The notes under the pieces were generated by a model that worked only from the letters and a program-made list of their open reading frames with translations, had not been told where the DNA came from and ran no database searches. This document shows, piece after piece, positions 1,756 through 37,022 of a stretch of 37,193 nucleotides of DNA. How positions within the stretch are numbered: position 1 is the first letter of the stretch; every line of letters starts with the position of its first letter. The position numbers and the translations under genes are program-made. Origin of the DNA: a virus (lineage: Duplodnaviria > Caudoviricetes); the IMG/VR virus record IMGVR_UViG_3300033067_001088, positions 1 to 37,193 of that record; one strand, 5' to 3'.

Positions 1756-3828
1756 ATGAAAAAAACCGACGACCGCTATCAGTCTATTTGCGCAACTATC
1801 AAACTGGATGTTGAGGCCAAAAACGAGGAGCGCGAGTTAATGCGCGATGACCAGCGGTTTGCTGCTGGCGATCAGTGGCCAGATGTTATCCGTAAAGCGC
1901 GGGAGTTGAGTAATCGCCCCATACAAACGGTCAACAGGATTCCGGCGTTTATTGACCAGGTAACGGGAGACGCCCGGCAAAACAAACCATCCATCAAAAT
2001 CCATGCGGCTGAGGATGGCGACGAGGATGTAGCGCTGATCTATGATGGCCTGGCTCGGGCAATCCAAAACGAGTCAAATGCAGATTTTGCCTATGACACA
2101 GCGGTAGAGCATACGGCTAATTTTGGGTTTGGCGCGTGGCGCGTGAAAACTGACTACGAGTCTGAGGATAGTTTTAACCAGATTTTGCTGATCCAGCGTA
2201 TTACCGATCCGCTATCCGTCTATTTTGACAAAAACGCGCAGCTGCCTGACTACTCTGATGCCCGGCATGTAACGGTTAAAGTGGTCATCACAAAAGATGA
2301 TTATCAGTCACGCTGGCCGGGCAAAGACAAATCGGCCTACAGTTTTGATGATTTTGCGCCAGAATGGGTAGTAGGTAAAGACCAAGTGGTCGTCGCCGAG
2401 CATTGGTACAAGGTCGAGGAAAAGAAAACGCTCTATCTGTTGCAGGACGTCGATGGCAACACAAAATCATCGTTTGAGTTGATGCCAGAGACAGTTGTTG
2501 TGCAACAGCGCGAAACAACCGTCACATCGGTAAAAATGTGCTATCTCAGCGGCGGTGATATTCTGGAGGAAAAAGACTGGGCTGGGAAAATCCTGCCCAT
2601 TGTCGGCGTCAACGGCAAAGAGGATCTGGTTGACGGCAAGCGCACTTTGCGCGGGATCGTCCGTTTTGCCAAAGACCCGCAGCGGATGTACAACTACTGG
2701 CGCACGATTGATACTGAGCAAAAAGCACTCGCGCCAAAAGCGCCTGTTTTAGTGTCGGCAAAACAGATTGAGGGTTATGAGCAATATTGGCAGGACGGAC
2801 TAACAACGACTGCGCCCTATCTGATTTACAATCCTGACCCATCCAGCCCATTACCAAATCGAGTCAATGCCGGGATTGTCGACAAAGGCGCAAACGAAGC
2901 TGCGCTGATGTGTGTTGACGAACTGAAATCGACAACCGGCATATTTAGCGCCAGCCTGGGGGAGGAGGACAACGAAAAATCAGGCCGTGCAATATTGGCT
3001 CAGCAACGTAAAGGAGACACGGCCAATTTTGCCTACATTGACAACGTATCTCGCGCCATTCGTCTGACTGGCCGTATCCTGATTGAAATGATCCCGAAAA
3101 TCTATGACTCGGCGCGGGTTGTATCGATCATGGGGGTTGATGGCGAGAAAAAACTAGCCAAAATCAATCAGGTCGATCAGGTCAAGGGTCAGCCGAAAAT
3201 GATTGATTTAACGGTTGGAAAATATGACTTGGTAGTCACGCAAGGCGCGAGTTATGCGACAAAACGCATTGAGGCGCTGAACATGCTCATGGAGTTGATG
3301 CGCGTCAATCCGGCCATGCTCAACATTGGCGGTGATTTGATGATGAAGGCAATGGATTGGGACGGATCGGAAGAAATGGCTGACCGCCTGAAAAAGCTGC
3401 TGCCGCCGCAATTGCAGGAAAACAACGGTGAACAGGAATTGCCGCCCGGCGTGCAAGGCATGATTGAGCAGGGGAAACAGATGATTGACGAAATGTCGCA
3501 GCATATCTCGGCGCTGGAGCGTGAAAAGGACGACAAAGACGATGAGTTGAGATTGAAAAAATACGAGATTGACGTCAAGGCTGAAATCGAATTTGCGAAA
3601 ATAGCCGCCACTGCTGGGTTGTCGATAGATGATGTTAAAAACATTGTCAACGATGCTCTGGCTAATGCCGCGAAACAGCCGGAATTACCAGATGAGCCAG
3701 AAACTAATGAGGATGCCGCGCCTATCGTTCAACAGCCAGAAATAGAACAGCCTGCCGCCCCGCCAGAGCTTGTTGCAGAACAGATGCCCGTGCTGCCGGA
3801 TGTACAACAGAATGAATTGACGGAATAG
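1756..3828 (+). CDS. P22-like portal protein
   Basis: 690 aa with F-x-x-G-D-Q-W, KDPQRMYNYW and SGRAILAQQ motifs and a long C-terminal coiled coil. Located after terL. Confidence 0.93.
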   Translation: MKKTDDRYQSICATIKLDVEAKNEERELMRDDQRFAAGDQWPDVIRKARELSNRPIQTVNRIPAFIDQVTGDARQNKPSIKIHAAEDGDEDVALIYDGLARAIQNESNADFAYDTAVEHTANFGFGAWRVKTDYESEDSFNQILLIQRITDPLSVYFDKNAQLPDYSDARHVTVKVVITKDDYQSRWPGKDKSAYSFDDFAPEWVVGKDQVVVAEHWYKVEEKKTLYLLQDVDGNTKSSFELMPETVVVQQRETTVTSVKMCYLSGGDILEEKDWAGKILPIVGVNGKEDLVDGKRTLRGIVRFAKDPQRMYNYWRTIDTEQKALAPKAPVLVSAKQIEGYEQYWQDGLTTTAPYLIYNPDPSSPLPNRVNAGIVDKGANEAALMCVDELKSTTGIFSASLGEEDNEKSGRAILAQQRKGDTANFAYIDNVSRAIRLTGRILIEMIPKIYDSARVVSIMGVDGEKKLAKINQVDQVKGQPKMIDLTVGKYDLVVTQGASYATKRIEALNMLMELMRVNPAMLNIGGDLMMKAMDWDGSEEMADRLKKLLPPQLQENNGEQELPPGVQGMIEQGKQMIDEMSQHISALEREKDDKDDELRLKKYEIDVKAEIEFAKIAATAGLSIDDVKNIVNDALANAAKQPELPDEPETNEDAAPIVQQPEIEQPAAPPELVAEQMPVLPDVQQNELTE

Positions 3829-12032: not shown

Positions 12033-14128
12033 TGCCCTATGTTATTGAATTGCCAAAAAGCAAAAGGAAAGGCTATGTCATCGAAACTCCGCCAGCGGCA
12101 AAAGTTAATGCTGATGAGCAGAGAGGCCGCGATCTACCATCTCCAGCACAAGGCGCAATTACTGCTGTCAGTAATGGCCTCCTTGGCTTTGGCGATGAGC
12201 TATATGGCGCTTTAGGCGGGCTTGGTGCGGCAGCTACTGGAAACGATATCAGGCAGGCATACATCGAAAACCGTGATTTGATCCGTGGCGCACAGAAACA
12301 GTACACCGAGGATTATCCGGTCACAGCGGCGGTCACAGGCGTGATGGCTGGCGCTCCATTGGCTGCGTTTACTCCATTCAAAGCGGCGCAATTAGCACAA
12401 GGCGCAACCAAGGCCGAGAAGGCTTTTTACGCCGCCAAATTGGCTGCGCAGTCGGCGAAAACCGGGGCTTTGTATGGTGGTGCATATGGCGCTGGCACTA
12501 GCGAGGCAGATACTGCTGGCGGTGTTGCGGCTGACGCTGCTAAAAACGCGGTTGTCGGCGCGGTTGTCGGTGGTGTTGCGCAGCCGGTTATTTCGGCGGC
12601 CTCTGGGCTAGGCAAAAATATTGCAATTCGGGCATTTGGCGATATAAAAAATGCTACCCCAACTCCTGTCGGGCCGGGTCGTGGTCAGGTCGGGGCTGTT
12701 GATCCATATGGCGCGATCATCGGCAAATCACAGGAATGGATCAAACGTCAGGGCGACATGAAAATTGCTGAGGCCATCGCGCAAACGGGTCGCGCACGCA
12801 ATAAAAACCCACGTTTCTCGCTAAACGGCGACGAAATACCATACTCCGACCGGCTGGCGGAAAAAGTTGATGTGATGCCGGTAGGGACGCCGATGGCTGC
12901 GCTGAGTGGGCCGAAATCCAATGAGTTGCGCTCTCTTGATGCAGTGTCTTTGTCGAGTGGCCGCACCGCTCCGGCTGTTGCTGATATGCAAGCCAGATTG
13001 GCGCAAACTGCCTCAAAACGCTACCTAAATTATGCCGATAAAGTGTTGGGCGGAGGAAAACCAGACTTTAACAAATCCATTGCCGCACTGGAAACACAGG
13101 CAAAGACTGAATCAAAGCCATTTTACGATGTGCTGCAAACAGTCAAAGTCCCGATTGATGATGAGGTGCGCGACCTGGTGCAGCGCTCTGGCCGCTATGT
13201 CTCCAAAGCCAATCAAATGGCACGTCTGGAGGGTGAGGACTTTTCGGATATCGTCAAATACATCAAAGATGGAAGTGGAAATGCCGAAATCCCACTCATG
13301 CAACTGGAGAGGCTGAAACGGGCAATGAACGGTGCTATAGGCAATGCCAAAGCGTCGGGCGATGCCGAGTTTGCCCGCAGTATCTTGACGGCAAAAAATG
13401 CGCTGATGGATAAACTGGAGCGGTCGTCCCCGGTAACTCAGGACGGTCAATCCATTTACCGTCTGGCCAATCAGAAATTTGCCGAGCCTAAACAATTGAT
13501 TGATTCGGTCGAAGAGGGAGGCAATCTCTTTAAACGCAATCACATGGATATTCGGGATTACAAGGCGACACTCAATGATGCCGAGAAGAAAGCCTATGAA
13601 ATCGGCGTGTTTCGCGCACTAGAGGAAAAACTCGGCACGCCGTCTGGGCGTAATTTTCTGACCGAGATCAGCAAAAACCGCAACACCAGCCAGGCATTGC
13701 TTGAGGCAATGGGGCCAGCGCGTTTTCGCCAGTTTGCCAAAATGATGAAAGGCGAGCAATCGCTCAAAGGTCTTTACAGTGTCAACACTGGGTCGCAAAC
13801 GGCACAGCGGGAAGCGGCGATAGCTGAGTTAGGTCTTGATCCGATGAAAGACGCTGCCGAAAGCATGGTGCATTTGATGGGTGGGAGTCCTCTTAGCGCA
13901 GCCGGTAAAGCCTCTGCGTTTTGGCAGAAAATTAGCACGCCAGAGCAGGTACGCGATTACATGGGCAGACAGTACCTCCTGACTGGCAAGGAGAGTCAGG
14001 ATTATTTGCGCACGCTAGGCGGCTTGATGAAAAAAATCGAACGAGTAAAATCACAAAGAGCCTCTGCAACAGGTACGCTTGGCGCATTAGGTACAGGCAA
14101 TCGCAACAAACCGCAGGAATCAAAATAA
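12032..14128 (+). CDS. DNA ejection protein (gp16-like position)
   Basis: 698 aa. Gly/Ala-rich N-terminal region (GFGDEL) and GSQTAQR motif. Synteny fits. Confidence 0.65.
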   Translation: MPYVIELPKSKRKGYVIETPPAAKVNADEQRGRDLPSPAQGAITAVSNGLLGFGDELYGALGGLGAAATGNDIRQAYIENRDLIRGAQKQYTEDYPVTAAVTGVMAGAPLAAFTPFKAAQLAQGATKAEKAFYAAKLAAQSAKTGALYGGAYGAGTSEADTAGGVAADAAKNAVVGAVVGGVAQPVISAASGLGKNIAIRAFGDIKNATPTPVGPGRGQVGAVDPYGAIIGKSQEWIKRQGDMKIAEAIAQTGRARNKNPRFSLNGDEIPYSDRLAEKVDVMPVGTPMAALSGPKSNELRSLDAVSLSSGRTAPAVADMQARLAQTASKRYLNYADKVLGGGKPDFNKSIAALETQAKTESKPFYDVLQTVKVPIDDEVRDLVQRSGRYVSKANQMARLEGEDFSDIVKYIKDGSGNAEIPLMQLERLKRAMNGAIGNAKASGDAEFARSILTAKNALMDKLERSSPVTQDGQSIYRLANQKFAEPKQLIDSVEEGGNLFKRNHMDIRDYKATLNDAEKKAYEIGVFRALEEKLGTPSGRNFLTEISKNRNTSQALLEAMGPARFRQFAKMMKGEQSLKGLYSVNTGSQTAQREAAIAELGLDPMKDAAESMVHLMGGSPLSAAGKASAFWQKISTPEQVRDYMGRQYLLTGKESQDYLRTLGGLMKKIERVKSQRASATGTLGALGTGNRNKPQESK

Positions 14129-16794
14129 TGGCGTTTTCTCTGTCTCCCTGGTTAAAGCCGCGCTTTTTCATCACTGGTACAAATCGGCCTTTGGCTGGCG
14201 GTTTGCTTTACTCGTACATGGCCGGTACAACTACGCCGCAGAATAGCTATAGTGATGATTCTGGCACACTCAATACCAATCCAATCGTTTTGGACGCAGA
14301 CGGCCAGTGTAATCTGTATCTGGCTGATGATTTGTCGTATCGGTTTATCCTGAAAGATGCGAACGATGTTACCCAGTTCGACAAAGACAACATCACCGGA
14401 CAGGCATCAAGCCGAACGCAATCAGTTGACACCATCTATGACCTGTTGAGCATTGCGCCAACAACAACTGGCACACGGGTAATTGTAGCGAGCTATTGGG
14501 GAGGCTGGGCAACGAGCAGCACGCCAAGAGGCGGCGGCGTATTTGTCTGGTCTCCAACGATGGCCAAATCTCGGCACAATGGCGGGACTATTATCAGCCC
14601 GACCGTGCCTTGGGATGGTACAGCGGCTGGACATGCGAGTTTTTCTGGAACAACCAGCGGAAATATTGAATTGCCAGTCGGAGTGACAACTGGAGGCTAT
14701 CCATCAGGAGACCCCAATAACATCACGAATGTCCGTACACGGCTGCCGGTAATGAGTGGGTTTTTAGGTGGATCAGGCGAGACTCAACCTAGTGGCATCG
14801 GCTGTTGGGTGCGTGAGGATAACGTCTATTCGTTCTGTAATTTCGGCGCGAAAGGCGATGCGGCGGAAAATGTCAACGGAACAGATGATAGTTACGCCAT
14901 GCTCCAGGCGGTGCGCTCAGTACCGACAACGGGTGGCGTGTTGCATATTGAGCCGTATTACTACACCCATGGCAATGGCGATAACCGTGTCATTTTCCTG
15001 TACATGGACGGCTACAAAAACATCACCATCAACGGCTATGGTGCAGTTATCCAATCACATTCCAGCAATCCTGCGCTTGTCGCAAATTGCGGATTTTGGT
15101 TTGTCAACAGCAGCAATATCACCATCAACGGCCTGAAATTCGATGGCAGGCTAGATGTCAGAACCCCGATTGGCGGCGATCCAAACCAAACCAACAAACA
15201 ACATGGCTTCAATATTGGTCTGAACTGTCATCATGTGACCCTCAATCATTGCACCGCCTCTCGCTGTATGATGGATGGCTTTGTCGTAGGTGGGTCAACA
15301 CAGGCTATTCCGTCACCATCAAAAATTACGCTGCGCAACTGTTTCAGTGAATACAACTACCGGCAGGGGCTTTCCGTCCTTCGATGCGTAGGTATGCTGG
15401 TCTCTGGTGGAAGCTACAGCAATACTGGCCAATTGGGGGCCAGCAAAGGCACAAGCCCTATGGCTGGTATTGATTCCGAGTCTGAGGGAGTTGCTAGCGG
15501 GTATTACAATTTCGGATTGGTTATTGATGGCGTAACGCTGGATAACAACAAAGGCGCTGGCATTTATTTGGCGCTTGGTTCGCTCAAATCAGTTTTGAGG
15601 AGCTGCATCGTCACGAATAACGGCGCATATGGTACAGCCTGTACGGCGGCATCAAACGAATGTGTTATTGAAAATAACTACATCAAAAACAATGGATTCA
15701 CAAACTCATCAGATGGCTGCGAGATTTACAACCTTGGATACAACAACGTGTATTTGGGCAACGCTGTCTATCCTACGGGCCGAGCGATTCTTGATATCTC
15801 AACGGTTTCTGGCTCTCCTGCGGGAGCTGATGCAATTTACGATGGAAATACCATCGACAACACAGCAAATACTGCCGGGGCCGGTTATATTTCTATTGCG
15901 CAGGCACGCTCATATATCAACAATAAACATATCAATCTGCAATCCCTAGCGGCAGGTCATGCGGTTAACTTTACATCGCCTAAATGTGTCATTAGAGGCA
16001 ATGTAGGCCTAAACACTAATGCTGCGAACACTTTCGGTTTTATGCGGGCTGACAAAGGCTTGGTCGTCTCTGATAATTATTCGTTTGGCTATCCCCTTGT
16101 TAGCGGATTCCAGATTTACATCCGCCCGGCGTCGCTGACAGGATCATCGACAAGGGATAAAGTTATTTCGTATGGTCGCAACTATGAGGATTTTTCGCCA
16201 AAAGTCGGCATGAGCAGCGGCGAGCAAATGGGGTTGATCGACTATCCGCCAGTTTTCCACAACACGCGGCGCATGGGATCAGCCTCGGCAGCTCCGACAA
16301 CTGGCGATTGGCAACAGGGCGACATTATATGGCGGGCAAGTCCATCAGCAACAAACGTCGCCAGCAGCAATACCTATTGGGTTTGCACAACAAGCGGTAC
16401 GTTTTCAGCCGTCGCGGCGACTGGTGATACCACAAACGGAACTAAAATTATCACCAATCCCAGTAACATGACCAATATTTTCCCTGGGAGCTTTATCACT
16501 GTTGCTGGAGCTGGCATCACCAACAGCATGGTAACGCAGGTAGATACGGTCAATAACACGATTACCGTAACAGCCAATGCTACGGCAACCCTGACTGGCG
16601 CTGCTATTAGCGCATCTTCACCAGTATTTACGCCTAAAGGCTATCAGAGCGTAAAAGGATCTACTGCCAGCCGCCCAGCTTTAGGGTCAGATGCTGCTGG
16701 CTATCTGTATTTTGATACAACCCTGGTAGCCGCTGGTAAACCAATATGGTGGTCTGGTACGGCGTGGCTTGACTCTACAGGCGCTGCGGTATGA
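14128..16794 (+). CDS. Tailspike / receptor-binding protein with parallel beta-helix (putative polysaccharide depolymerase)
   Basis: N-terminal virion-binding domain (PLAGGLLYSY..GTTTP..NTNPIVLDA.G), FGAKGD neck, Asn-ladder beta-helix repeats, C-terminal GSTASRP..YFDTTL..GKPIWW module. Confidence 0.88.
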   Translation: MAFSLSPWLKPRFFITGTNRPLAGGLLYSYMAGTTTPQNSYSDDSGTLNTNPIVLDADGQCNLYLADDLSYRFILKDANDVTQFDKDNITGQASSRTQSVDTIYDLLSIAPTTTGTRVIVASYWGGWATSSTPRGGGVFVWSPTMAKSRHNGGTIISPTVPWDGTAAGHASFSGTTSGNIELPVGVTTGGYPSGDPNNITNVRTRLPVMSGFLGGSGETQPSGIGCWVREDNVYSFCNFGAKGDAAENVNGTDDSYAMLQAVRSVPTTGGVLHIEPYYYTHGNGDNRVIFLYMDGYKNITINGYGAVIQSHSSNPALVANCGFWFVNSSNITINGLKFDGRLDVRTPIGGDPNQTNKQHGFNIGLNCHHVTLNHCTASRCMMDGFVVGGSTQAIPSPSKITLRNCFSEYNYRQGLSVLRCVGMLVSGGSYSNTGQLGASKGTSPMAGIDSESEGVASGYYNFGLVIDGVTLDNNKGAGIYLALGSLKSVLRSCIVTNNGAYGTACTAASNECVIENNYIKNNGFTNSSDGCEIYNLGYNNVYLGNAVYPTGRAILDISTVSGSPAGADAIYDGNTIDNTANTAGAGYISIAQARSYINNKHINLQSLAAGHAVNFTSPKCVIRGNVGLNTNAANTFGFMRADKGLVVSDNYSFGYPLVSGFQIYIRPASLTGSSTRDKVISYGRNYEDFSPKVGMSSGEQMGLIDYPPVFHNTRRMGSASAAPTTGDWQQGDIIWRASPSATNVASSNTYWVCTTSGTFSAVAATGDTTNGTKIITNPSNMTNIFPGSFITVAGAGITNSMVTQVDTVNNTITVTANATATLTGAAISASSPVFTPKGYQSVKGSTASRPALGSDAAGYLYFDTTLVAAGKPIWWSGTAWLDSTGAAV

Positions 16795-17084
16795 CGATCA
16801 GCCGACTACCTAAGTCGGCCTTCTTTCCAGCGATTCGCATCAGTCCGCAGCGTCTGATTTTCGGCCTCAAGCTCGGCGATGCGTTTGTCGGTAGCCTCCC
16901 CCAACTCCGGCGCTGGACTGGCGGCGATCATGGCGCAAACGGATCTCGATTGCAGCCGCTGGAGTACCAAGGCCGGTGGCTGTTGCCAGAGGCCGTATTG
17001 TCCGACCCCGACTATATCGACCAGCGCGATTTTTTATCAAGCCTGCCGACCGAGGACGTGACCATTGAAATACTCGATAGCTGA
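16791..17084 (+). CDS. Hypothetical protein
   Basis: ATGA overlap with the tailspike. 97 aa. Confidence 0.6.
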   Translation: MTISRLPKSAFFPAIRISPQRLIFGLKLGDAFVGSLPQLRRWTGGDHGANGSRLQPLEYQGRWLLPEAVLSDPDYIDQRDFLSSLPTEDVTIEILDS

Positions 17085-17433
17085 ATCGGTAAACGCTGAC
17101 GTAAATACCTCAGTGACGTACAAAACCGATCTGGAGCAGTACGGCAAACTGGAGTTTTGGGAGCCAGCCGGGGAATTTGGTGACTGCGAGGATTATGCCC
17201 TACTTAAACGGTCTAGACTTGCAGAGGCTGGCGTACCGTCAACTGAGATGCTGTTAGCCACTTGCTACATGCCTGACGGTCAGGGGCACATGGTGTTGCT
17301 GGTTAAAACCGATCAAGGCTGGTTTGCACTGGACAACAATTACAACTGGCCGATGATCCCGTCACAACTGCCGTATCGCTGGGACAAGTGTCTAAGGGGT
17401 GATCAATGGGTAAAATTATCGTTTTGGGTTTGA
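17065..17433 (+). CDS. Transglutaminase-like cysteine peptidase core (BTLCP / peptidase C93, LapG-like)
   Basis: VN..VN, TD..YG..EFW, GDCEDYALLK (catalytic Cys), GHMVL (His) and LDN (Asp). No signal peptide. TTG start with upstream GAGG. Confidence 0.85.
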   Translation: MKYSIAESVNADVNTSVTYKTDLEQYGKLEFWEPAGEFGDCEDYALLKRSRLAEAGVPSTEMLLATCYMPDGQGHMVLLVKTDQGWFALDNNYNWPMIPSQLPYRWDKCLRGDQWVKLSFWV

Positions 17434-17552
17434 TTTTGGCCGGGTGTGCTGCTACATCGCACGACGCCCCGGTTTTTGGGGATAAAGTCACGCCGCCCAT
17501 CGGATGGTTCGGGTATTGCGCCCGCCATCCGACAGACGTTGATTGCCGCTAA
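17406..17552 (+). CDS. 48-aa lipoprotein carrying a BTLCP N-terminal-like motif (not in the ORF track)
   Basis: MGKIIVLGLILAGCAATSHDAPVFGDKVTPPIGWFGYCARHPTDVDCR. Lipobox LAGC. AAGGGGT RBS. Confidence 0.8.
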   Translation: MGKIIVLGLILAGCAATSHDAPVFGDKVTPPIGWFGYCARHPTDVDCR

Positions 17553-24154: not shown

Positions 24155-24292
24155 ATGAAAACACGAAAGAACATCACCATCTGCCCGATAGTCTGGGCGG
24201 AGTTGAAAAAGCAGGCGCAGAAGATGGGGCGCAGTGCGGCAAGCCTGAACGAAGAAGCTGTGCGTAAGTATTTGGCGGAGGTGAAGAAATGA
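24155..24292 (+). CDS. Ribbon-helix-helix DNA-binding protein (45 aa)
   Basis: RKNITI strand plus two helices. GAGGT RBS. Confidence 0.75.
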   Translation: MKTRKNITICPIVWAELKKQAQKMGRSAASLNEEAVRKYLAEVKK

Positions 24293-26778
24293 ATGTCGAT
24301 TACATGAACTTTGTTCGCAGCAAAATCCAGCTGGCCAAGTTTGATGGGTTTGAAATTGATGAAATTGAAATTTCCCCTATCCTGAAGCCGCACCAGCGAG
24401 ATATTGTCAAATGGGCAGTTCGCGGCGGTTGTCGTGCTATTTTTGCCGCGTTTGGTCTTGGTAAATCGGTAATGCAGATTGAAACGCTGCGTCTGATTCA
24501 TGCGCACGCTGGCGGCAAGGTTTTAGTTATTTGCCCGCTCGGTGTCCGTCAAGAGTTCAAGCGCGATGCTCAAATGCTTGGCGTTCAGTTTGAGTTTATT
24601 CGCCGCGAATCCGAAATGGTTGAAGGTTGCGATTTCTATCTGACCAACTATGAATCCGTGCGAGACGGCAAGCTGGACGTTAACCTTTTTACGGCTGTTT
24701 CTCTGGACGAAGCATCGGTTTTGCGCTCGTTTGGCAGCGATACCTATCAGACGTTTTTGCAGGTGTTCAAAACAGTCAAATATCGTTTTGTCGCGACCGC
24801 AACACCATCGCCAAACCGATTCAAGGAATTGATTCACTATGCAGGTTTTCTTGGCATCATGGATACAGGCCAAGCATTGACCCGGTTCTTCAAGCGCGAT
24901 TCGACAAAGGCTAATAACTTGACGCTTTATCCGCACAAAGAGCGCGAGTTCTGGCTATGGATGAGTTCATGGGCGGTATTCATTAGCAAGCCGTCAGACC
25001 TTGGATACGATGACGACGGATACGATATGCCACCGGTAAAGGTCATCATTCACGAGTTGCCGACTGATCACGATGGAGCCGGAGCAGACCGCGACGGTCA
25101 GGGCATCCTGTTTCGTGATACGGCAATGGGGCTGTCATCGGCAGCGGCGGAAAAACGGGAAAGCCTGGAAGCTCGGATTGCTAAGACGGTCGAGATCGTC
25201 AACGCATCGCCTGATGATCACTTCATTATCTGGCATGACCTAGAAACCGAACGTGCGGCGATTCAGAAGGCCATTCCAGAATCTGTTGCCGTTTACGGAA
25301 ATCAAGACCTTGAAGATCGTGAAGATCGGATTATCGGATTTTCCAATGGCGATTTTCGGATATTGAGTACCAAGCCGGTTATTGCCGGTTCAGGATGCAA
25401 TTTTCAGCGTCACTGTCACAAGATGATTTTCACCGGCATTGGCTACAAGTTTAACGACTTTGTACAAAGCATCCATCGGGTTCAACGATTCCAGCAGCAA
25501 TATGAGTGCGAGATTCACATCATCCACACCGAAGCCGAGCGCGATGTTTTGAAGGTGCTTTTTGAAAAGTGGAAACAACATAACGAGATGGTGACCAACA
25601 TGACCGAGATTATCCGCAAATATGGCCTGAACCACATTCAGATGGCCGAAGAACTGACCCGTTCCATTGGAGTTGACAGAATCGAGGTATCTGGCAATGG
25701 CTGGACAGTAGCTAATAACGATTGCGTTATTGAGGCACGTCGCCAGCCTGAAAACCATGTAGACCTGATTGTCACGTCGATTCCGTTCGCCAATCATTAC
25801 GAGTACACCCCGAGCTACAACGATTTCGGCCACACTGAGAACAACAATCATTTTTGGGCGCAGATGGACTTTTTGACGCCGGAACTGTTGCGCATCCTAA
25901 AGCCTGGCCGCATCTACGCTTGCCACGTTAAAGACCGCATCCTGTTCGGCAACGTGACCGGCGCTGGCGCTCCGACTGTTTCCCCGTTCCACTGTGAAGC
26001 GACGTTCCACGGCCTAAAACACGGTTTTGACTACATGGGCATGATTACCGTAGTTACTGACGTGGTGCGCGAGAATAACCAGACTTACCGGCTCGGCTGG
26101 TCTGAGCAGTGCAAGGACGGGACAAAAATGGGTGTTGGCTCACCTGAGTATATTATTCTGTTTCGCAAGCCGCAGACTGACCGCACAAGAGGTTATGCTG
26201 ACGACCCGGTCAAGAAATCGAAAGAAGACTATACCCGCGCCCATTGGCAGGTTGACGCTCATGCGTTCTGGCGGTCAAGCGGAAACCGCATGATTACCGC
26301 CGAAGAAATGGCCGGTTATGGCCCGGATAAACTGGCATCTCTGTACACAAAATACAGCCTGCAAAACGTCTATGACTACGAGCATCACGTAAAATTGGGT
26401 GAAGATTTGGAATTGCGCGGGGCTTTGCCTTCAACGTTCATGTCATTAGCGCCAGGTTCGCACCATCCTGACGTATGGCATGATGTTAATCGCATGTTGA
26501 CACTGAATAGCGATCAATCAAAACGCGCCGTGGAGCAACATGTGTGCCCTTTGCAGATCGATATTGTTAAACGACTGATTGAGCGTTACAGCAATAAGGG
26601 CGAACTGGTTTACGATCCATTCTGCGGGCTTGGAACTGTGCCCTACTGTGCGCTGGAAATGGGTCGAAAAGGTCAAGGCAGTGAATTGAATCCGGGTTAT
26701 TTTATGGATTCCACATACTATCTGAAATCAATGGAGCAGAAGGTAAGTTCGCCAAAATTATTTGATTTTGAGTTTTAG
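24289..26778 (+). CDS. SNF2-like helicase fused to an N4C/N6A DNA methyltransferase
   Basis: FGLGKS, LDEAS, TATP, GCNFQ and R..RFQQ helicase motifs. DLIVTSIPF, HVCPLQ and DPFCGLGT methylase motifs (beta order). Confidence 0.9.
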   Translation: MNVDYMNFVRSKIQLAKFDGFEIDEIEISPILKPHQRDIVKWAVRGGCRAIFAAFGLGKSVMQIETLRLIHAHAGGKVLVICPLGVRQEFKRDAQMLGVQFEFIRRESEMVEGCDFYLTNYESVRDGKLDVNLFTAVSLDEASVLRSFGSDTYQTFLQVFKTVKYRFVATATPSPNRFKELIHYAGFLGIMDTGQALTRFFKRDSTKANNLTLYPHKEREFWLWMSSWAVFISKPSDLGYDDDGYDMPPVKVIIHELPTDHDGAGADRDGQGILFRDTAMGLSSAAAEKRESLEARIAKTVEIVNASPDDHFIIWHDLETERAAIQKAIPESVAVYGNQDLEDREDRIIGFSNGDFRILSTKPVIAGSGCNFQRHCHKMIFTGIGYKFNDFVQSIHRVQRFQQQYECEIHIIHTEAERDVLKVLFEKWKQHNEMVTNMTEIIRKYGLNHIQMAEELTRSIGVDRIEVSGNGWTVANNDCVIEARRQPENHVDLIVTSIPFANHYEYTPSYNDFGHTENNNHFWAQMDFLTPELLRILKPGRIYACHVKDRILFGNVTGAGAPTVSPFHCEATFHGLKHGFDYMGMITVVTDVVRENNQTYRLGWSEQCKDGTKMGVGSPEYIILFRKPQTDRTRGYADDPVKKSKEDYTRAHWQVDAHAFWRSSGNRMITAEEMAGYGPDKLASLYTKYSLQNVYDYEHHVKLGEDLELRGALPSTFMSLAPGSHHPDVWHDVNRMLTLNSDQSKRAVEQHVCPLQIDIVKRLIERYSNKGELVYDPFCGLGTVPYCALEMGRKGQGSELNPGYFMDSTYYLKSMEQKVSSPKLFDFEF

Positions 26779-34254: not shown

Positions 34255-34307
34255 ATTTGCGAAACTGTAATCATGTGCTAGATTTAGACGATTATCGGAG
34301 ACGCATC

Positions 34308-34796
34308 ATGCAAGACCCGGAATGGATTGTCGAAGCAAAAAAATACATTGGTCAGCGCGAAATCAAAGGCGCAAAAACCAATGGCTTTATCAGCGTCTGG
34401 CTGAAAACATTGCGGGCCTGGTGGTCTGATGATGAGCAGCCCTGGTGCGGGGTATTTGTTGCTCACTGTATCCAGTCTGCCGGACTGCCAATTCCTAAAA
34501 ACTGGATGCGTGCTACAGACTGGTTAAGTATCGGTAAAGTGCTGCCAAAGCCTGCCGAGGGCTGCATTGTCGTGTTTTCCCGCGCCGGTGGTGGCCATGT
34601 CGGGTTTGTTGTGGGAAAATCAGCGGCGGGAAATCTTATGGTGCTGGGTGGCAATCAGGGTGACGAGGTGCGAATCAGCGAGTTTAGCCTGGATCGGGTG
34701 GTCGGCTACCGCTGGCCGTCTGTTGCCCCATTGCCAGAGCGTTATAACCTGCCTATTATGGGGAGCAACGGCAAACTATCGACTAATGAGGCGTAA
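34308..34796 (+). CDS. Endolysin, TIGR02594 / NlpC-P60-CHAP-like
   Basis: DDEQPWCGVFV (Cys), GGGHVGFV (His) and LGGNQGD motifs. GGAG RBS before ATG 34308. Confidence 0.85.
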   Translation: MQDPEWIVEAKKYIGQREIKGAKTNGFISVWLKTLRAWWSDDEQPWCGVFVAHCIQSAGLPIPKNWMRATDWLSIGKVLPKPAEGCIVVFSRAGGGHVGFVVGKSAAGNLMVLGGNQGDEVRISEFSLDRVVGYRWPSVAPLPERYNLPIMGSNGKLSTNEA

Positions 34797-34799
34797 CAC

Positions 34800-34955
34800 A
34801 TGAAATGGTTTAGCAAACTCCCCCCTGAATTGCGCCACCTGATAGCCAGTGCATTGACTCTGCTGATTACAGGTCAGGCAATCAAACACGGATACATCAC
34901 TCCGGATCAGGCCTCAACAGTCATCGCGCCAATGGTGCAAGGCGTGGCAAAATGA
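34800..34955 (+). CDS. Putative holin-like membrane protein (51 aa, not in the ORF track)
   Basis: MKWFSKLPPELRHLIASALTLLITGQAIKHGYITPDQASTVIAPMVQGVAK. GAGG RBS. Follows the endolysin. Confidence 0.55.
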   Translation: MKWFSKLPPELRHLIASALTLLITGQAIKHGYITPDQASTVIAPMVQGVAK

Positions 34956-35161
34956 CGATTGATTTGGCAGTCATACTAAACGGGCTGATACTTGCCGCAA
35001 TTTGCTGGTTTGGGAAAAAGGCTGTTTCGATTTGCGAAACCATTGTGCGACACGACGAAAAGCTGAATAACCACAACAACCGCATCATTGAGCTTGAGCG
35101 TTGCCCGCCGTGTCCAAACGTACAGCCGTTGCGAGACACTGATTATGACGCCCGCATTTGA
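34952..35161 (+). CDS. Membrane-anchored coiled-coil lysis-cassette protein
   Basis: N-terminal TM helix, then RHDEKLNNHNNRIIELE. Confidence 0.6.
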   Translation: MTIDLAVILNGLILAAICWFGKKAVSICETIVRHDEKLNNHNNRIIELERCPPCPNVQPLRDTDYDARI

Positions 35162-35243
35162 ACTGCTCGCTGCATCAATCATTTTCGGGCTTGTGTTTGG
35201 TGTTGGCGTGATTGCCATGGCCGCTATGGTTATGGGGTATTGA
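35145..35243 (+). CDS. 32-aa hydrophobic peptide
   Basis: MTPAFELLAASIIFGLVFGVGVIAMAAMVMGY. Confidence 0.5.
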   Translation: MTPAFELLAASIIFGLVFGVGVIAMAAMVMGY

Positions 35244-35245
35244 TC

Positions 35246-35356
35246 ATGTTTAAGTGGTTTATGCGTTATCTGCTCCTGCTTGGCGTGTTGTCGATTCTCG
35301 GTTTTTTTGGTTGGTTGCTGTATTTGGTTTGGTGGTTGATTCAGGGGATGGTTTGA
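35246..35356 (+). CDS. 36-aa hydrophobic peptide
   Basis: MFKWFMRYLLLLGVLSILGFFGWLLYLVWWLIQGMV. GGGGT RBS. Confidence 0.55.
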   Translation: MFKWFMRYLLLLGVLSILGFFGWLLYLVWWLIQGMV

Positions 35357-35452: not shown

Positions 35453-35968
35453 ATGAATGATTTAAAAGTTGAATACAGAAATATTAAAGAATTAATTCCT
35501 TACTGTAACAACTCAAGAACGCACAGTGACGAGCAAGTTTTACAGATTGCATCAAGCATAAAAGAGTTTGGTTTTACTAATCCAGTGCTAATTGACGAAC
35601 AGGGCGGCATTATTGCAGGTCATGGTCGCGTCATGGCAGCTAAGAAACTAGGCCTTGCCGAAGTGCCTTGTATCGTGTTGGATGGGCTGAGCGAAGCGCA
35701 GAAAAAGGCTTATATTATTGCAGATAACAAACTAGCTCTTAATTCGGGTTGGGACGAGGAATTGCTACGGGTCGAGTTTGCCGAACTTACAGATTTGGGC
35801 TTTGATTTGGCGCTGACGGGGTTTGAGGTTGCCGAGCTACAGAATATATTTTTAGAGTCTGAAAAAATTGAGTCTGAAAAAGATTCGAGCGCAAAAGAGA
35901 TCGACGTGGACAGCTACGAAATGAGCTGCATTTGTCCAAAATGTGGATTTGAATTTGATGATAAATAA
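35453..35968 (+). CDS. ParB/Sulfiredoxin-like domain protein
   Basis: NNSRTHS, SIKEFGFTNPVLI, IAGHGR, ADNKL and C-terminal CPKCGFEF. Confidence 0.9.
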   Translation: MNDLKVEYRNIKELIPYCNNSRTHSDEQVLQIASSIKEFGFTNPVLIDEQGGIIAGHGRVMAAKKLGLAEVPCIVLDGLSEAQKKAYIIADNKLALNSGWDEELLRVEFAELTDLGFDLALTGFEVAELQNIFLESEKIESEKDSSAKEIDVDSYEMSCICPKCGFEFDDK

Positions 35969-37022
35969 ACCTGATTGTGCATGGAATCTATCCGACCTTG
36001 AAGCCATTAAAAAAAATGGTGTAAAGGTTATGAGTACGTTCGCTTGTGGTGGCGGCTCAAGCATGGGGTACAAGCGGGCAGGATGCACGATAGTTGCAGC
36101 AAACGATATCGACCCCGAGATGGCGTGGCATTACAAACGCAACCTGAATCCGCCCCTGTATTTTCTTTGCCCGATTGGTGACTTGCTGACCAAAGACCTG
36201 CCGCCCGAATTGTACGATCTGGATATTTTAGACGGGTCGCCGCCTTGCAGCACTTTTAGTATGGCGGGCAGTCGTGAAAAGTCGTGGGGCAAGGATAAGC
36301 ATTTTAGAGAGGGGCAGGCGAAGCAGGTATTGTCAGATCTGTTTTTTGATTATCTTGATTTAGTCGGTAAGCTACGGCCAAAAGTGGCAATCGCTGAAAA
36401 CGTCAAAGGAATGCTTCTTGGAAATGCCAAGGGTTACACCAAGATGATCATGGCGCGATTCAAAGAGCTAGGTTATCGTGCGCAACTGTTCCTGTTGAAT
36501 GCTGCTGATTGTGGCGTTCCGCAAAAGCGCGAGCGGGTGTTCTTTGTTGCGATTCGAGATGATATTGAAGCGCCGCCGTTGAAGCTGGCGCCGACGCATC
36601 GGTGGATTAGCGCGGGTGAAGCGACGGCTGATTTGCAGGTGTTGACGGATGATGAGGTGATTGATACAAAAGCAACTCTGACCCATACAAGGCATTGGCC
36701 GCATGTTAAACCGGGTGAAAATTATTCAGATGCTCACAAAAAAAGATGCGGTAAAGAAGGCGCATTCAATTACTTTAGGCTGAACGGAGATAAGCCATCG
36801 GCAACGCTTGCTGGTGTAGTCGCTCTTCCTGGTCATTGGTCAGAAATGCGGCTTTTAACCTACCGCGAATGGAAGCGCCTAGGCAGCTTCCCCGACGACT
36901 ACCACGCTAAGACCGACAAGATCGGTAAATACATGATCGGTATGAGTGTACCGCCTAAGATGACCGAGCAGGTGGCACGGGCTGTTTGTGAGCAGTGGCT
37001 AGGAGTGATTTATGACGACTAA
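35958..37022 (+). CDS. DNA cytosine-C5 methyltransferase
   Basis: FACGGG (motif I), GSPPC (IV), ENVKG (VI), QKRERVFF (VIII), SFPDDY and GMSVPP (X). Confidence 0.93.
   Translation: MINKPDCAWNLSDLEAIKKNGVKVMSTFACGGGSSMGYKRAGCTIVAANDIDPEMAWHYKRNLNPPLYFLCPIGDLLTKDLPPELYDLDILDGSPPCSTFSMAGSREKSWGKDKHFREGQAKQVLSDLFFDYLDLVGKLRPKVAIAENVKGMLLGNAKGYTKMIMARFKELGYRAQLFLLNAADCGVPQKRERVFFVAIRDDIEAPPLKLAPTHRWISAGEATADLQVLTDDEVIDTKATLTHTRHWPHVKPGENYSDAHKKRCGKEGAFNYFRLNGDKPSATLAGVVALPGHWSEMRLLTYREWKRLGSFPDDYHAKTDKIGKYMIGMSVPPKMTEQVARAVCEQWLGVIYDD

Follow-up and report, generated by a model that had tools for sequence, protein, structure and literature searches.

Why should a phage encode a protease core that bears no export signal and, overlapping it, a small lipoprotein carrying the motif that single-chain members of the same family have at their N-terminus? 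The question is raised by positions 17065-17552 of IMG/VR record IMGVR_UViG_3300033067_001088, a virus sequence of 37,193 bases, estimated to be 96% complete, the whole of which is called the window here. The first-pass annotation, made from the letters of the window, had proposed a split, order-permuted BTLCP (LapG-like) protease. Our comparisons uphold this proposal: judging from profile alignments, each of the overlapping genes encodes one half of what was once a single BTLCP protease. The pair is real and conserved and, in the literature searched, apparently undescribed; it is a variant within the known BTLCP family. Its features are as follows.

17065..17433, plus strand: signal-less BTLCP/C93 catalytic core, 122 amino acids (PF06035 match, triad, predicted fold)
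17185-17187, 17287-17289 and 17332-17334, plus strand: C41, H75 and D90, the catalytic triad of the core
17263-17265, plus strand: extra Cys67 of the core, typical of split cores
17406..17433, plus strand: 28-nucleotide overlap of the two genes, the downstream one lying in the -1 frame and having a ribosome-binding site of its own
17406..17552, plus strand: 48-amino-acid lipoprotein with a type II signal, a short tether and the BTLCP N-terminal module (lipobox, motif homology)
17445-17447, plus strand: lipobox Cys14 (LAGC), with Ala at +2 and predicted sorting to the outer membrane
17490..17546, plus strand: P-x-G-W-x-x-Y-C-x3-P-x4-C motif; in the profile of fused BTLCPs, columns 3-32 are homologous to it

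A catalytic core without a leader

The core gene starts at a TTG with GAGGA 8 nucleotides upstream, and its two closest homologues begin at the same residue. The product matches PF06035 with an E-value of 7.5e-29 and 101 bits (curated cut-off 27), over profile positions 43 to 145 of 162. Its model, which folds alone in prediction (pLDDT 95.4), has LapG as best match among solved folds (4FGO; Z 14.9, rmsd 2.7, 117 residues aligned). A search limited to 67-214 residues returned 106 homologues, most of them 119 to 145 amino acids long, so that the short core form is a family and not an isolated case.

For comparison, 171 loci and the window were sorted by a motif rule into 78 fused and 94 non-fused entries; the alignments used below contain 66 distinct pairs, many of the loci being close relatives. 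The Cys-His-Asp triad, described as intact at first, is invariant in all 66 split cores. D40, E42 and D43 of the DCED calcium-type motif are kept in 65, 63 and 64 of the 66, respectively; these acidic residues flank the catalytic cysteine, and the core may have the calcium-dependent protease or transamidase activity of BTLCPs. An export signal was said to be lacking, and is: within the first 30 amino acids, the maximal 10-residue hydropathy of 76 split cores does not exceed 1.23, compared with at least 1.97 in the 78 fused proteins, and if the earliest possible start is taken, 4 of 78 reach 1.7 to 2.0. The signal sits instead on the separate lipoprotein.

Split cores carry, in addition, a cysteine of their own: Cys67 is found in 64 of 66, all 56 fused proteins compared have Val or Ala in its place, and no fused protein (78 of 78) has a cysteine after the catalytic one. 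Since L027, L028 and L082 retain Cys67 although the cysteines of their partners are gone, it is not simply half of an inter-chain disulfide.

A lipoprotein homologous to the N-terminal module

The lipoprotein gene starts at an ATG preceded, 6 nucleotides before, by AAGGGG. It is the sole strict lipobox ORF of the window, and both the LAGC lipobox and the N-terminal motif reported for it are present. The overlap with the core gene probably reflects translational coupling. The 48-residue product has no match in Pfam, PF06035 included, or in PHROG, and none to the Llp or Cor families; its best matches in the ESM Atlas (0.83-0.88) are unnamed small proteins, a lead only.

Profiles are more telling. 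A hidden Markov model (HMM) of the N-terminal region, trained on 64 distinct bacterial fused BTLCPs only and searched among 28,798 stop-to-stop segments, finds the window lipoprotein at an E-value of 8.5e-4, and its matches in other loci adjoin the core. When the two halves were compared separately with the fused profile, the 66 mature lipoproteins aligned on columns 3-32 (hhalign probability 90.4, E 1.4e-6) and the 66 cores on columns 40-169 (hhalign probability 100, 35% consensus identity). These stretches are adjacent and do not overlap; the two halves tile the ancestral protein.

Outer-membrane sorting of the lipoprotein is predicted from the residue at +2, a residue other than Asp directing lipoproteins to the outer membrane: it is not Asp in any of 78 partners. 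The motif glycine lies 16 to 23 residues from the lipid-bearing cysteine in 76 of the 78. In the partners at L058:4387-4566 and L062:656-826 the tether is about twice the usual length, with 41 to 43 residues to the motif.

In two related contigs (L273:508-706; L274:2821-2907 and 3245-3403), the downstream partner keeps the motif, has no lipobox and has two Arg in its leader; L274 also shows a motif fragment upstream of the core and a downstream copy without either cysteine. These may be a non-lipidated variant, decay or a chimera.

The family is nearer to the single-chain alphaproteobacterial BTLCPs than to LapG. With the former (PF06035, MEROPS C93; proteins of Rhizobium and Mesorhizobium, and Caulobacter HvyA, PMC4241560) it shares the triad, DCED and the N-terminal P-x-G..C..C module, the likeness to HvyA being drawn at family level. 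It differs from them in that module and core are separate genes in reversed order, the core is unsignalled and Cys67 is added. With LapG (P. fluorescens 4U65, L. pneumophila 4FGO) it shares the fold, the triad and the calcium-type motif; LapG, in contrast, is exported as a single chain and retained by the receptor LapD, and no LapD or LapA gene was seen among the 39 window proteins scanned, host copies being beyond the reach of that scan. Because module and core stand apart here, the pair offers a natural test of what the two-cysteine module does in alphaproteobacterial BTLCPs.

Conservation and selection

Conservation of the pair was among the checks named in the first-pass annotation, and it holds. 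Of the 94 non-fused entries, 81 show a partner: in 64, among them the window and its near-copy L001, the core comes first, and in 17 the lipoprotein does. Of the 13 entries without one, three end with their contig, eight are divergent forms that bear a signal, one is a fused protein that escaped the motif rule, and the last is L095. Among 80 metagenome loci, 51 have a partner, 17 are fused, 11 are cut by a contig end and one is cut upstream; three of these partners (L252, L273, L274) are without a usable lipobox. Two DNA patterns for the peptide, made from known partners and mostly finding those again, gave 23 loci: 20 with a core, L317 at a contig edge, and L301 and L303, low-scoring and without a lipobox. 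The dN/dS ratio over 17 disjoint pairs is 0.14 for the lipoprotein and 0.13 for the core, the choice of pairs at 70% lipoprotein identity or more biasing the lipoprotein value downwards; both genes are under purifying selection. Contigs of two studies span the lipoprotein gene, one of them also the entire overlap, and no indel is listed inside either ORF. Of the changes listed in the contigs, one leaves the lipobox cysteine in place and one shortens the core by two residues, to the end seen in its closest homologues. No RNA data set is listed among those with the sequence, and one RNA-labelled run yielded a single contig, probably from DNA.

A chance ORF or an assembly error was considered and rejected, given the HMM match, the selection, the contigs of two studies and the recurrence in many loci.

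Another view is that one protein is made by frameshifting, or that the gene is decayed or mis-assembled. The downstream gene of adjacent pairs is always in the -1 frame, and in lipoprotein-first loci a -1 shift would rebuild the fused protein. A slippery heptamer in the shared open window is present in only 2 of 79 loci, however, and lipoprotein-first cores have their own start codons, so programmed frameshifting was rejected. Swapped order and inserted genes make a fused chain impossible for the loci concerned, such as L006:1311-2061 and L011:1087-1746, in which a LamG-like gene stands between core and lipoprotein, and purifying selection and the other assemblies exclude decay or error. We therefore regard this view as hardly credible; the two orders and the intervening gene fit two separate products.

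No description of a split phage BTLCP was found in the literature searched, outside which subscription papers and supplements lay, and searches by term gave none in PMC12596118, PMC6139136 and PMC11283719. The last of these reports BTLCPs in freshwater phages, moving between phage groups as here, and its main text mentions no lipoprotein, signal peptide or split gene.

Gene order and the history of the split

In a tree of 106 cores, built on 121 columns and unresolved at many forks, the 74 split cores all fall in a single branch (99/97), together with L087, a fused viral protein. Lipoprotein-first pairs are basal in it, and core-first pairs are nested within, making up one side of a branch in 48% of bootstrap trees. 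This suggests that fission took place in the original order and that a swap came later; the order in the window, described from the outset as permuted, would then be the derived one. The BTLCP at L087:3860-4354, which is fused, has an ordinary signal peptide and belongs to a complete phage, is nested among lipoprotein-first split cores, and may be a re-fusion or a sign of more than one split. Fused lipoprotein BTLCPs also exist (11 of the 120 listed), so that the lipid anchor may predate the split.

Predicted docking of the peptide and its possible roles

Do the two products bind? Prediction of the core and lipoprotein as a complex gave 0.59, compared with 0.00 for the best control, with at least 97% contact agreement between runs and a partner pLDDT of 82. 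Of 157 solved complexes 116 attain the mark, as do 2 of 215 mismatches; with values of 0.60 or below only 18 of these complexes do so, but both of the mismatches, and the halves of a split gene can pass such a prediction by likeness. This lends weak support to physical docking. As homology makes binding likely beforehand, we think that core and lipoprotein quite probably bind.

The whole triad lies in a core that is predicted to fold by itself, and the peptide may thus be a tether or an inhibitor instead of an activator. In one such scenario the core acts in the virion or the cytoplasm, in tail-fibre maturation or in envelope penetration at infection, and the lipoprotein, an old propeptide, now serves as an inhibitor in the membrane, blocking the core of superinfecting relatives or turning the enzyme off at lysis. 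Genes within 2.5 kb were classed by hand-mapped PHROG labels for 81 loci, the counts being lower bounds because of cut loci and missed genes: tail genes are found in 26, head or neck genes in 24, lysis genes in 17 and any of these in 58. The pair thus follows tail genes most often, and in the window it is coupled to the tailspike operon, as the inhibitor scenario would have it.

The T5 Llp and Cor lipoproteins are comparable: they too are small and in the outer membrane, and llp and cor lie near tail genes. No sequence match joins them to the lipoprotein studied here, which is a protease fragment kept with its core. T5 Llp, in the inner leaflet of the outer membrane, gives superinfection exclusion (10.64898/2026.03.26.714494), a role the first-pass annotation had listed among the possible ones; Llp, however, is made soon after infection, whereas both genes of the pair would be on one late transcript, the promoter signal before them being not above chance (4 promoter-like sites against 1.8 +/- 1.3 in shuffled sequences, none convincing). 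LapD is reported to sequester LapG through the tryptophan of a GWxQ motif (PMC4359373), and the partners carry a G-W pair; at that position, however, 45 of 56 fused proteins have His, so that the likeness to LapD is not shown. The fused enzymes also speak against a propeptide: their N-terminal module, modelled in one of them as a strand and two short helices (pLDDT 83-96), has its P, C and C invariant in 56 of 56 proteins and shows no sign of removal. An enzyme with its inhibitor is therefore, in our opinion, rather unlikely.

A candidate lysis-gated protease

The absence of a leader, the predicted outer-membrane lipoprotein partner and the kept calcium motif together favour a protease that is gated by lysis and acts at the outer membrane, cutting the anchors of host surface structures. 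We adopt this reading tentatively, giving it a little short of an even chance. The predicted state before lysis has the core in the cytoplasm and the lipopeptide on the inner face of the outer membrane. Opening of the inner membrane by the holin would bring the halves together; we infer this timing from the fact that holin triggering is the simplest moment for the two to share a compartment, as it is for signal-less endolysins, which gain access then. The peptide, closed by a disulfide loop, would re-dock at its place in single-chain BTLCPs, and the core, which we infer to be activated by calcium, would be held within about 20 residues of the outer membrane. LapG itself binds calcium near its active site, and calcium is reported to stimulate cleavage of LapA (PMC4359373, PMC4241560). 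The substrates might be periplasm-exposed anchors of host surface structures, with the retention domain of LapA-type adhesins as model case, by analogy with how LapG cleaves LapA (PMC4359373). Progeny would in this way be freed from the dying cell's envelope or biofilm, alongside the spanins and not instead of them.

Several observations weigh against this reading. Tail genes are commoner neighbours of the pair than lysis genes are, and in the window it lies 17 kb from the endolysin. Triad and DCED are wholly within the core, which is predicted to fold by itself. The N-terminal module is mostly without a counterpart in LapG, whose alignment begins only at model residue 42-43 in three of the four rows; some BTLCPs with a signal (L036, L040 and the P0137-P0152 group) also do without the motif, so that the fold does not need it in every case. 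Three partners (L027, L028, L082) are without either motif cysteine; the lipobox is absent in L273 and L274, and Tyr replaces its cysteine in L252. In L095 the core has an aberrant end and no partner occurs in the 2.1 kb downstream. Finally, the substrate of HvyA is given as unknown (PMC4241560), and the one proposed here is a guess from LapG.

Surface remodelling before lysis is a different possibility. During infection or lysogeny, the core would cross into the periplasm along some non-canonical route, be captured there by the lipoprotein, and suppress the capsule or another surface structure. HvyA, a periplasmic BTLCP, is reported to prevent capsulation and set phage sensitivity (PMC4241560), and BTLCP is reported as the commonest auxiliary gene in river phages (PMC11283719). 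Among the 50,697 records of the cultured-phage collection the core has 7 matches, at 34-37% identity, RHph_I4 and CcrPW being among them; CcrColossus and L338C, the two looked at, encode single chains with a leader. Some carriers of the pair are proviruses; one of them, L083, has an integrase and a full lysis cassette and encodes a core identical to a protein that NCBI lists under Sphingomonas oleivorans, so that a Sphingomonas lysogen may be available. Split cores, however, have no hydrophobic leader, and Sec, which lipoproteins use, cannot carry a folded partner. Signal loss kept across the clade is left unexplained by remodelling before lysis, and no tyrosine integrase was found in the window (96% complete). 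All in all, we find this explanation distinctly unlikely.

If the two halves do meet only at lysis, as in the lysis-gated reading, the pair would give phages, besides holin, endolysin and spanin, a protease of the envelope whose action is timed, made by gene fission and gated by the topology of the cell. Stated most broadly, a naturally split protease would act as an AND gate for the mixing of compartments and as a fourth kind of lysis-stage component, reconstituted only after holin triggering and cutting host envelope anchors, which would let progeny out of the layers of adhesin, capsule or biofilm left intact by endolysin and spanins; it would have spread across podo-, myo- and sipho-like phages, with its gene order swapped on the way. 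We think this broad form less likely than not, though far from remote. A meeting of the halves only at lysis would also change how the commonest 'auxiliary metabolic gene' of one river-virus survey (PMC11283719) is understood, provided that the copies there are split.

Spanins and other neighbours

The first-pass annotation had noted that the window has no canonical spanin pair, and we saw none either; it had accordingly suggested outer-membrane disruption as a role. The pair could then remove the outer-membrane barrier in place of Rz/Rz1. Like Rz/Rz1 (PMC6139136), it is a late, overlapping pair whose second gene encodes a small outer-membrane lipoprotein, often beside the endolysin. The endolysin gene directly adjoins it in L002, L020, L050, L053, L059 and L061, and in the last four the pair follows, in the usual place of Rz-Rz1. 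Spanins were reported as not found in 91 of 677 surveyed phages (PMC6139136). A scan for lipoboxes in 14 fetched records (one for its first 20 kb only) gave no clear o-spanin in G002, G004, G005, G012 and G013, a weak negative, since a nested Rz1-like ORF in G015 was missed by it. However, an Rz-like gene comes after the pair in L003, L006, L007, L019 and L083, and for L003 and L083 an overlapping ORF with a lipobox was read as well; Rz-like genes are near it in L046, L048 and L051; and G017 has, by eye, a cassette of endolysin, holin, i-spanin and o-spanin-like genes elsewhere in its genome. The core, moreover, is a soluble protease domain without the transmembrane helix of an i-spanin, unlike the inner-membrane protein encoded by the first gene of a true pair. 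Co-occurrence with Rz/Rz1 in several phages indicates that the pair is not a general spanin substitute; the suggestion is weakened accordingly, and we now consider it very unlikely.

Two pair-carrying phages encode lipoproteins of 39-41 amino acids with a common cysteine-proline tail (L182:9066-9188 and L183:9513-9629), the one in L182 with one weak match to phrog_1275 (Rz-like). In two unrelated phages, genes resembling Avd and reverse transcriptase (by eye, a diversity-generating retroelement) lie just upstream of the pair (L028:1317-2950 and L054:1176-2825).

Gene content of the window

The window encodes a terminase, a P22-like portal, a scaffold, a coat protein and a beta-helix tailspike. 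The features that set the pair in context are the following.

14128..16794, plus strand: beta-helix tailspike, the final large gene of a P22-like late operon
16791..17084, plus strand: 97-amino-acid ORF with no assigned function, overlapping the tailspike stop and the core start
34257..35161, plus strand: probable lysis cassette, with a CHAP-type endolysin (34257-34796), a 51-amino-acid ORF and an XhlA-like holin candidate (34952-35161)

Tailspike stop, 97-residue ORF, core gene and lipoprotein gene form a chain of overlaps, and genes on the opposite strand start 47 bases after the last. Such a chain makes the pair, in all likelihood, the end of the late operon, joined to it by the 97-residue ORF, which among the compared loci is present only in the window and L001. 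Matches of DnaB to named bacteria are at 37-40% only and point to no host.

After the CHAP endolysin, four small ORFs lie at 34800-35356, several of them hydrophobic and one XhlA-like, with no spanin recognised among them. Elsewhere in the window, an 829-residue protein (24289-26778) fuses an SNF2-type helicase domain to a DNA methylase domain, and a separate C5 methylase is encoded at 35943-37022.
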